Assembly (NCBI GenBank): GCA_012474735.1
Contig: GCA_012474735.1_4085.1
From: a phage
Length of the DNA stretch: 64,000 bases
Direction: 5' to 3' (one strand)
Below the pieces are notes generated by a model. It was not told the origin of the DNA and made no database searches. It saw only the letters and a list, made by a program, of their open reading frames with translations. Each line of letters begins with the position of its first letter. Position 1 is the stretch's first letter. The translations under genes were made by a program, and so were the position numbers. Below are positions 38,186-38,863 of this stretch, piece by piece.

Positions 38186-38542
38186 CTATGATAAAATCAT
38201 GATAGGATATTCACTATCGATCAGTACTTCGAATCCGAAACCTTCGTACCATTCTTTAAGATTGAAGGCGTTATCTTCTCCTGTATCGCATTCTAAAATG
38301 ATACAATCTGAATCATCGGCGGCATCAATAAAGGCATTCATTAATTCGTTACCTTCACCATTGCCCCGACTATCAGGATCAACATAAAGAGAATCAATAA
38401 ACGCTACACGGTCATAATCAAGATCCGGTGCAATGATTCCACGTTTAACAAACCAGTACTGCAATTGTGCTACTTTGCCCTGTACTTGATAGCCAGTGAT
38501 CTCGCCATTGTCAGTAGTACGCGTGATATGTTGTATTCCCAT
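38186..38542 (-). CDS. putative GNAT-family acetyltransferase-like protein
   Basis: RBS gaggatagaaatcATG; promoter upstream; motif YVDPDSRGNGEGNELMNAF resembles GNAT acetyl-CoA-binding motif A. Confidence 0.45.
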   Translation of the reverse strand: MGIQHITRTTDNGEITGYQVQGKVAQLQYWFVKRGIIAPDLDYDRVAFIDSLYVDPDSRGNGEGNELMNAFIDAADDSDCIILECDTGEDNAFNLKEWYEGFGFEVLIDSEYPIMILS

Positions 38543-38605
38543 GATTTCTATCCTCAGTTAAGATATAAAACATTATACACTATCTTTCAGTACTGTCAAT
38601 ACTTT

Positions 38606-38863
38606 TTATCTCATAGATCTATGCCAACAATTACGCGGGGGACGTTTAAAAGTACTATCATGATCCTCCTGGCAAGTTATGCAGTACTTACATCCCTTAA
38701 CGGCCTGGCGTCGTTTCTCAGGGATTATATCGCCGCAGTCGAGGCAATGTATCAGTGATTCTATTTGTGCGTTAATTTGCTTTCTAGCGTGGTTAACGGC
38801 GGCCTGAATCACTGCGTTAATCTCGTCTTGCTCGGCCCCATCTTTCGCGAATCCAACAGCCAT
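38606..38863 (-). CDS. putative DksA/TraR-family C4 zinc-finger protein
   Basis: RBS gaggttaaaataATG; C-x2-C-x17-C-x2-C with CLDCGDIIPEKRR...CKYCITCQ. Confidence 0.5.
   Translation of the reverse strand: MAVGFAKDGAEQDEINAVIQAAVNHARKQINAQIESLIHCLDCGDIIPEKRRQAVKGCKYCITCQEDHDSTFKRPPRNCWHRSMR

Follow-up and report, generated by a model that had tools for sequence, protein, structure and literature searches.

A YbiI-like zinc-finger gene and a mini-GNAT gene in an Asteriusvirus jumbo coliphage: two members of known families with an incidental adjacency

The stretch of DNA considered here, referred to below as the window, comprises 64,000 nucleotides of a phage genome (GenBank assembly GCA_012474735.1, contig GCA_012474735.1_4085.1) and carries, on its minus strand, two small neighbouring genes, one for a zinc-finger protein of the DksA/TraR family and one for an acetyltransferase of the GNAT family. 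The 3-kb stretch around this locus matches 42 phage records at 91-99% identity, nearly all of them from PBECO4/121Q-group jumbo phages that infect Escherichia or Salmonella, and the window belongs to an Asteriusvirus jumbo coliphage of this group. Both genes are already labelled in GenBank relatives: the phage 121Q record describes gp294 as a 'C-4 type zinc finger protein' and gp295 as an 'acetyltransferase', and the records of JP4, Ecwhy_1 and WPEC3 have similar labels. The two products are ordinary members of known families.

Gene arrangement, cassette and promoters

Both genes are real and under selection. Compared with related phages, the ratio of synonymous to nonsynonymous codon differences is 2:0 and 11:7 for the zinc-finger gene, indicative of purifying selection, and 7:0, 6:0, 7:0 and 21:6 for the GNAT gene, indicative of strong purifying selection. 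Two antisense open reading frames (ORFs), at 38133..38387 and 38465..38758 of the plus strand, were set aside as unsupported, given that the minus-strand genes have profile matches as well as purifying selection, and a search of the locus for Rfam families and tRNAs returned none. A preliminary description of this DNA had placed both ORFs at the coordinates where they are found, and had assigned one to the DksA/TraR family, from a C-x2-C-x17-C-x2-C motif typical of it, and the other to GNAT-like proteins, from an acetyl-CoA-binding signature; each of these assignments holds up against the profiles and models given below. It had also read the two genes jointly, as part of a host-takeover toolkit, a pairing which the comparison of related phages overturns.

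A small ORF lies immediately upstream of the zinc-finger gene, and its TAA stop codon overlaps the zinc-finger ATG (TAATG), an overlap which suggests that the two are co-transcribed and translationally coupled. The near-consensus promoter which is likely to serve this unit belongs to a family of 68-nt promoter repeats, D1 (Table 1). The GNAT gene, on the other side, has a perfect sigma-70 promoter of its own within the 63-bp gap that follows the zinc-finger gene, and a third, promoter-like site serves the next gene downstream (37919..38113).

Table 1. Features of the locus and perfect promoters of the window
Feature	Position	Strand	Basis
85-residue DksA/TraR-family C4 zinc-finger protein, phage YbiI-like clade	38606..38863	-	ORF, Pfam, PHROG, PDB matches, AF2, Foldseek
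118-residue mini-GNAT acetyltransferase without beta1-alpha1-alpha2 arm	38186..38542	-	ORF, Pfam, AF2 model
Small upstream ORF, 48 residues from GTG (29-48 in relatives)	38863..39009	-	annotated in 121Q (gp293) and WPEC3 (CDS031)
Perfect sigma-70 promoter TTGACA-16-TATAAT, directly upstream of GNAT	38572..38599	-	promoter scan, 12/12
Near-consensus promoter TTGACA-17-CATAAT with TG, likely for small ORF and zinc-finger gene	39162..39190	-	promoter scan, 11/12
Promoter-like TTGCAT-17-TATAGT, downstream of GNAT	38154..38182	-	read from sequence
420-bp GNAT cassette (3 bp instead in PBECO4)	38169..38588		BLAST against PBECO4 locus, junction sequences
Octamer CAGTACTG, downstream cassette border	38161..38168		sequence
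Octamer CAGTACTG, upstream cassette border, overlapping -35/spacer of GNAT promoter	38588..38595		sequence
Perfect promoters 1-7	6480-6509, 31833-31860, 33358-33385, 35788-35816, 36215-36242, 36555-36582, 37534-37561	-	
Perfect promoters 8-13	38572-38599, 39686-39713, 40268-40295, 41303-41330, 47068-47095, 50124-50151	-	

The relationship between the two genes is seen most directly in phage PBECO4, the flanks of which are 99-100% identical to the window and which lacks the cassette. Its absence removes the GNAT gene and fuses two promoters, such that the promoter-like site which lies downstream of GNAT in the window is joined in PBECO4 to the upstream -35 box. Other relatives likewise have the zinc-finger gene without GNAT, as do T4-like phages, where it stands alone (in JS10, between mobD.3 and mobD.1). 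Nor is there a zinc-finger neighbour beside the GNAT homologues of Klebsiella phage 05F01 and of the metagenomic phage contigs examined, and adjacency of the two genes outside Asteriusvirus was not found in the loci examined. Because PBECO4 lacks the cassette, because GNAT has its own promoter and because the genes occur apart in other phages, they do not form a functional unit; they are two independent accessory genes, the adjacency of which is incidental. The contrary proposal, that the two proteins cooperate in a joint takeover of host transcription, for instance through acetylation by GNAT of RNA polymerase (RNAP) or of the zinc-finger protein itself, can call upon the adjacency and common orientation of the genes in at least 24 Asteriusvirus records, upon the lack of any predicted terminator between them, and upon the precedent of Rac, a phage GNAT which inactivates host RNAP (PMC7552054). 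Set against the distribution and promoter structure just described it is very improbable, the more so as the 25 phage records retrieved with GNAT by tblastn include no phage of phiKMV type, which is the group that encodes Rac. Indeed, nothing connects the GNAT protein to transcription. PBECO4 and the window phage are nevertheless useful as a near-isogenic pair (99-100% identity at the neighbouring genes compared), in that the 420-bp difference offers a natural test case for the mini-GNAT, from which a host target, or a defence system countered by acetylation, might be sought.

The promoters at the locus are part of a wider pattern. Perfect TTGACA-N16/17-TATAAT promoters number 13 in the window; every one is on the minus strand and forms part of a repeated promoter unit of ~68 nt. 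Their discriminators are AT-rich (30% GC), and an upstream element rich in A and a hairpin in the 5' untranslated region (GGGGAGAA..TTCTCCCC) accompany many of them. According to part of the published description of the related phage CBB (PMC5259590), RpoD-like promoters cluster there before short genes presumed to act in early host takeover, the cluster reaches into the terminal repeat, and the phage encodes sigma factors, a phage RNA polymerase going unmentioned in that part. In fEgEco12, a close relative of the window phage, PhageTerm and restriction digests set the left genome end and gave a direct terminal repeat of 20,993 bp (PMC13070987). This end maps to window position ~50516, from which the ~21-kb direct terminal repeat lies wholly within the window, at ~29500-50516, and the zinc-finger and GNAT genes ~12 kb inside it. 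Elsewhere on the minus strand, at 36807-36834 and 40845-40872, two 12-bp stem-loops resembling terminators have a TTGACT -35 box within them and TATTAT after them; these may be combined terminator and promoter elements.

The octamer at the cassette borders, the palindrome CAGTACTG, is itself greatly over-represented, with 59 copies in the window against ~1 expected from shuffles, its core AGTACT being present 262 times and GTAC 651 times. It occurs in coding and non-coding DNA, is dense at 47235-50585, and is frequent in promoters, either in the spacer immediately ahead of the -10 box or fused to the -35 box; no relevant publication came up in a literature search on AGTACT. Over the ~1.7 kb nearest the fEgEco12 end, in which fEgEco12 has no annotated gene, the octamer is densely packed. 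Further afield, runs of similarly sized ORFs (~160-220 residues at 865-21164 on the minus strand, ~360-430 residues at 54915-63422 on the plus strand) suggest paralogous gene families, several members of which have CAGTACTG in similar contexts. Closer to the locus, and two genes downstream of GNAT, a 107-residue ORF (37568-37891, minus strand) matches Pfam DUF7247 with 32.1 bits against a cutoff of 27; it is apparently missing from 121Q, where a 19-nt match is all that is found within the 5.4-kb locus compared.

The zinc-finger protein

The product of the zinc-finger gene has cysteine residues at positions 40, 43, 61 and 64, in the C-x2-C-x17-C-x2-C arrangement, which are the only invariant cysteines across 57 homologues; the further cysteines at 58 and 79 are not conserved. 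It passes the Pfam profile zf-dskA_traR (PF01258) with 41.2 bits against a gathering cutoff of 24.9 (E 1.6e-10) and matches PHROG 54, 'DksA-like zinc-finger protein' (E 1e-18). A search of the PDB places E. coli YbiI (2KGO) first, over the full length (E 2e-12), and TraR next (E 1e-5). Homologues are present in 975 phage records, those of T4-like phages, JS10 and Moon among them, including full-length copies of 65-74% identity. The protein belongs to a phage clade which is nearest to E. coli YbiI, with TraR second, and which is found in Asteriusvirus and, at 60-80% identity, in ~130 records including T4-like phages. The N-terminus reads MAVGFAKDGAEQDE, the clade being nearly invariant at the tip (MAVGFAKDGAEQ), and the C-terminus is a conserved tail, FKRxPRNCWHRSMR, in the phage clade, where bacterial YbiI proteins end in GYNRRGSKDSQLR. 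C58, C79 and H81 might make up another metal site; of these C58 is variable, and the tail is modelled with a low predicted local distance difference test score (pLDDT). Part of the clade's sequence is also seen in the Mosigvirus Escherichia phage PNJ-6 (L016:1117-1281), in which a 54-residue ORF has the second CxxC and the tail only (CVGCQ...FKREPRNCWHRSMR), preceded by an unrelated N-terminus, and matches PHROG 25948; it may be a remnant, or a tail module which is functional by itself.

The AlphaFold2 (AF2) model has the helix-zinc domain-helix order of the DksA/TraR fold, comprising a long N-terminal helix (6-31), a zinc domain, helices at 49-54 and, C-terminally, at 62-71, and an unstructured tail (72-85). 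Foldseek with this model returns YbiI first, then TraR in its RNAP complexes (TMt 0.64-0.65) and then DksA. For a closer comparison with TraR, a TraR-seeded homologue search gave only close TraR copies, and the profile was supplemented with lambda Orf73 and VP882 Orf61 from phage records; hhalign against it aligns residues 15-73 with TraR 12-70 at a probability of 99.3%, in a register which makes the N-terminus of the zinc-finger protein three residues longer than that of TraR. R51 and R52 are invariant among the 57 homologues; I47, Q65 and D69 are also invariant and P48 and E49 nearly so, and the series I47, P48, E49, R51, R52, Q65, D69 aligns to TraR I44, P45, E46, R48, R49, Q62, E66. The arginine pair R51/R52, in a PE-x-RR context, is thus the counterpart of TraR R48/R49, and on the predicted C-terminal helix Q65 and D69, together with K73 (family consensus FKR), match TraR Q62, E66 and K70, the extra tail following. 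In TraR, R48/R49 contact the rim helices and beta-prime Si3 of RNAP and the C-terminal helix contacts beta Si1; functional TraR homologues are defined by these two elements, the former within a globular zinc domain, and by a DxxDxA tip (PMC9239242). Of the phage TraR homologues, five were tested, and every one both bound RNAP and complemented a dksA mutant; for lambda Orf73 an increase in burst size is described as well (PMC9239242).

On the strength of these correspondences it is moderately probable, and somewhat more so than the converse, that the zinc-finger protein binds RNAP with a transcriptional effect. It would dock on host RNAP in the manner of TraR, with the zinc domain on the beta-prime rim helices and Si3 via R51/R52, the C-terminal helix on beta-lobe Si1 and the N-terminal helix inside the secondary channel. 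So bound, it would alter the kinetics of initiation, disfavouring host promoters with short-lived open complexes; it would probably damp ribosomal RNA and ribosomal-protein promoters, while the phage's own consensus promoters, with their AT-rich discriminators, should be spared. Since the phage appears to rely on the host RNAP core, a promoter-selective modulator of TraR type is more plausible than a general poison of RNAP. The missing DxxDxA motif is what keeps the probability moderate, and with a tip of another kind the regulatory output may differ from that of TraR. RNAP binding and promoter selectivity are both things that we infer, and the secondary-channel reading is a reasonable one.

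Several observations weigh against it. The tip retains D8-x-A10 only, with an aromatic residue, F5 (or W), at the position of the first Asp, and TraR function depends on the motif; moreover, some zinc-finger proteins of intermediate length in the TraR/DksA family which lack it are inactive (PMC9239242). The N-terminal 14 residues are unaligned to the TraR profile, confidence in the AF2 model is moderate (pLDDT 73), and the NCBIfam cutoffs are not reached, either for the YbiI equivalog NF008243 (81.4 against 96 bits) or for the TraR subfamily (52.5 against 59.7). The authors who studied YbiI favoured a role in iron metabolism (PMC2613031). The promoter-dense region in which the locus lies is presumed, from promoter sequence, to be early. 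Studies of what DksA-like proteins of jumbo phages do were looked for in the literature, and nothing relevant came up.

Such points are the substance of an alternative in which the protein keeps the TraR/DksA fold and acts like the YbiI clade and not as a TraR-like regulator of initiation, whether through a metal-related role, through another partner engaged by the conserved tail, or by occupying the secondary channel with no effect beyond competing with, or blocking, DksA and the Gre factors. Besides the altered, unaligned tip, the suggested iron link and the inactivity of motif-less family members, this alternative gains from the high conservation of the phage-specific tail and from the survival of that tail alone in the Mosigvirus ORF. 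It has to contend with the invariance of the RNAP-contacting arginine pair and of the C-terminal-helix residues, and with the finding that P2 Orf82 and X. bovienii Gp34, both with incomplete motifs, are nonetheless able to bind RNAP and to complement a dksA mutant (PMC9239242). Moreover YbiI itself, when overexpressed, is reported to rescue dksA auxotrophy, as 'data not shown' (PMC2613031). On balance a YbiI-like role is possible but doubtful. A further reading is clearly less likely still, namely that the phage YbiI-like clade is a distinct class of secondary-channel factor, which could be marked by its different tip (G-F/W-A-K-D-G-A, ~3 residues longer than that of TraR) and its Cys/His/Arg-rich C-terminal tail, and which could, unlike TraR, occlude the active site or the entry of nucleoside triphosphates, or recruit another partner.

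The TraR-like reading, which remains the preferred one, bears on two broader suggestions of the preliminary description. That the protein is a secondary-channel binder is reasonable as far as the TraR-like fold, the arginine pair and the residues of the C-terminal helix are concerned, and loses ground at the tip, where the motif is missing and residues 1-14 do not align. That the locus belongs to a host-takeover toolkit is likewise half sustained: the zinc-finger protein is a plausible component, and promoter density and position in the terminal repeat support an early or host-takeover context, whereas such a role is unsupported for GNAT, the pairing with GNAT was wrong and the kinase invoked alongside is weak. 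This kinase is probably the 213-residue ORF at 33842..34483 (minus strand), the Pkinase match of which stays below threshold (17.6 bits against a cutoff of 31.7).

The mini-GNAT acetyltransferase

The GNAT protein passes three Pfam models, Acetyltransf_1 (37.2 against 20.7 bits), Acetyltransf_7 (33.5 against 27) and Acetyltransf_10 (26.3 against 23.6), the matches spanning profile positions 53-116 only. The acetyl-CoA loop, motif A (Q/RxxGxG/A), is present as R59-G-N-G62-E-G64. The AF2 model is of high confidence (pLDDT 93.5) and contains the core beta4-alpha3-beta5-alpha4-beta6-beta7, ahead of which the N-terminal arm (beta1-alpha1-alpha2) is incomplete, just a beta-hairpin (3-21) and a helix (25-33) preceding beta4. 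Of the phage records found by tblastn, 24 are from Escherichia or Shigella phages and one from a Klebsiella phage of the Stephanstirmvirinae. A word-indexed search for homologues gave two proteins only, such that an exhaustive search of representatives was needed to define the family; this yielded 290 representatives, proteins of 120-140 residues being aligned over their whole length. Some homologues are C-terminal domains of large proteins with PARP-like, ParB_N, amidoligase or DUF5661 domains, and one adjoins ART-PolyVal genes on a phage-like contig. Little or no variation is seen across the family at R59, G62, G64, D86, E89, W98 and Y99, and the invariant Y99, in alpha4, could be the catalytic tyrosine.

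Taken together, the sequence features make it likely that the protein is an active, acetyl-CoA-dependent acetyltransferase. Its pyrophosphate-binding loop is intact and its Trp-Tyr pair does not vary, while the N-terminal acceptor-binding arm is missing; the gene would be expressed as a gain-or-loss cassette with a consensus promoter of its own. That it should instead be a degenerate, catalytically dead fold, used as a binding module only, is quite improbable, in view of the near-invariance of the R59-x-x-G62-x-G64 loop and of W98/Y99, of the strength of purifying selection, and of AcrVA5, which at 92 residues is reported to be catalytically active.

As for the acceptor, the open acceptor side and the relatives among polyvalent proteins lead us, tentatively, to a macromolecular target, and the protein might acetylate a macromolecule of the host as AcrVA5 does. 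Two results count against this proposal: PADLOC, searched for defence systems, gave no match for GNAT (nor for the zinc-finger protein), and AcrVA5 was not retrieved by a profile search with the mini-GNAT, such that the likeness between them is structural only. Acetylation of a small molecule (candidates being polyamines, antibiotics or toxins, and derivatives of nucleotides or amino acids), in the service of metabolic reprogramming or detoxification, is a somewhat weaker possibility, since the alpha1-alpha2 arm, which usually shapes the pocket for a small-molecule acceptor, is missing, specific enzyme families in NCBIfam are all matched far below their cutoffs, and the relatives are found in conflict proteins of polyvalent type. 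A toxin of the TacT/AtaT type is not supported either, there being no PADLOC match, no NCBIfam model near its cutoff, and only unrelated small ORFs as neighbours. Cas12a is not known from the E. coli hosts of the window phage. The more specific proposal that the mini-GNAT, separately from the zinc-finger protein, inhibits a host protein of defence or transcription by acetylation, in the style of AcrVA5, is unlikely.

Comparison with known systems

Both the zinc-finger and the GNAT findings extend known families and leave current understanding unchanged. At the level of the locus there is a parallel with the PeSL elements, promoter-flanked gene cassettes in the hyperplastic regions of T4-type phages. 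The likeness lies in small ORFs each placed behind a near-identical early sigma-70 promoter with a stem-loop, and in gain and loss at promoter repeats; the difference is that the window has its hairpin after the promoter, within the 5' untranslated region, and that the cassette borders coincide with the CAGTACTG octamer.

For the mini-GNAT, AcrVA5 (an anti-CRISPR mini-GNAT, PDB 6IUF) is about equally compact, and differs in that the window protein has the extra helix 25-33 and no significant sequence-profile match to it. Rac (LUZ19 gp28) shares with the window protein that it is a phage-encoded GNAT; it serves the shut-off of host transcription, triggering cleavage of the RNAP alpha subunit and inactivating host RNAP (PMC7552054), and comes from a different group of phages with a different host.

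For the zinc-finger protein, DksA has the Pfam zinc-finger family in common and DksA-RNAP complexes are among the Foldseek matches; DksA, however, has 151 residues and a coiled coil and needs guanosine tetraphosphate (ppGpp), whereas the window protein has, like TraR, a single N-terminal helix. YbiI aligns over the full length at ~39-45% identity, with the MA-G-(F/W)-A-x-D-x-A tip, the C4 finger and PE-x-RR in common, and is distinguished by being encoded on the chromosome and by its GYNRRGSKDSQLR tail in place of the phage RNCWHRSMR, the phage protein falling under the equivalog cutoff. F-plasmid TraR and its phage homologues (lambda Orf73, VP882 Orf61 and P2 Orf82) share with the window protein the three-element architecture, a similar size and the equivalents of R48/R49, P45/E46 and Q62/E66/K70; all are found on mobile elements of Proteobacteria. 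In contrast, the window protein is without DxxDxA, has the longer N-terminus and an extra conserved tail of 14 residues, and is ~26-29% identical to them. If it does act as TraR or lambda Orf73, then strictly lytic jumbo and T4-like phages would also reprogramme host RNAP without ppGpp, as has so far been shown for plasmid and temperate-phage homologues, and its divergent tip would reveal what the TraR mechanism can do without.
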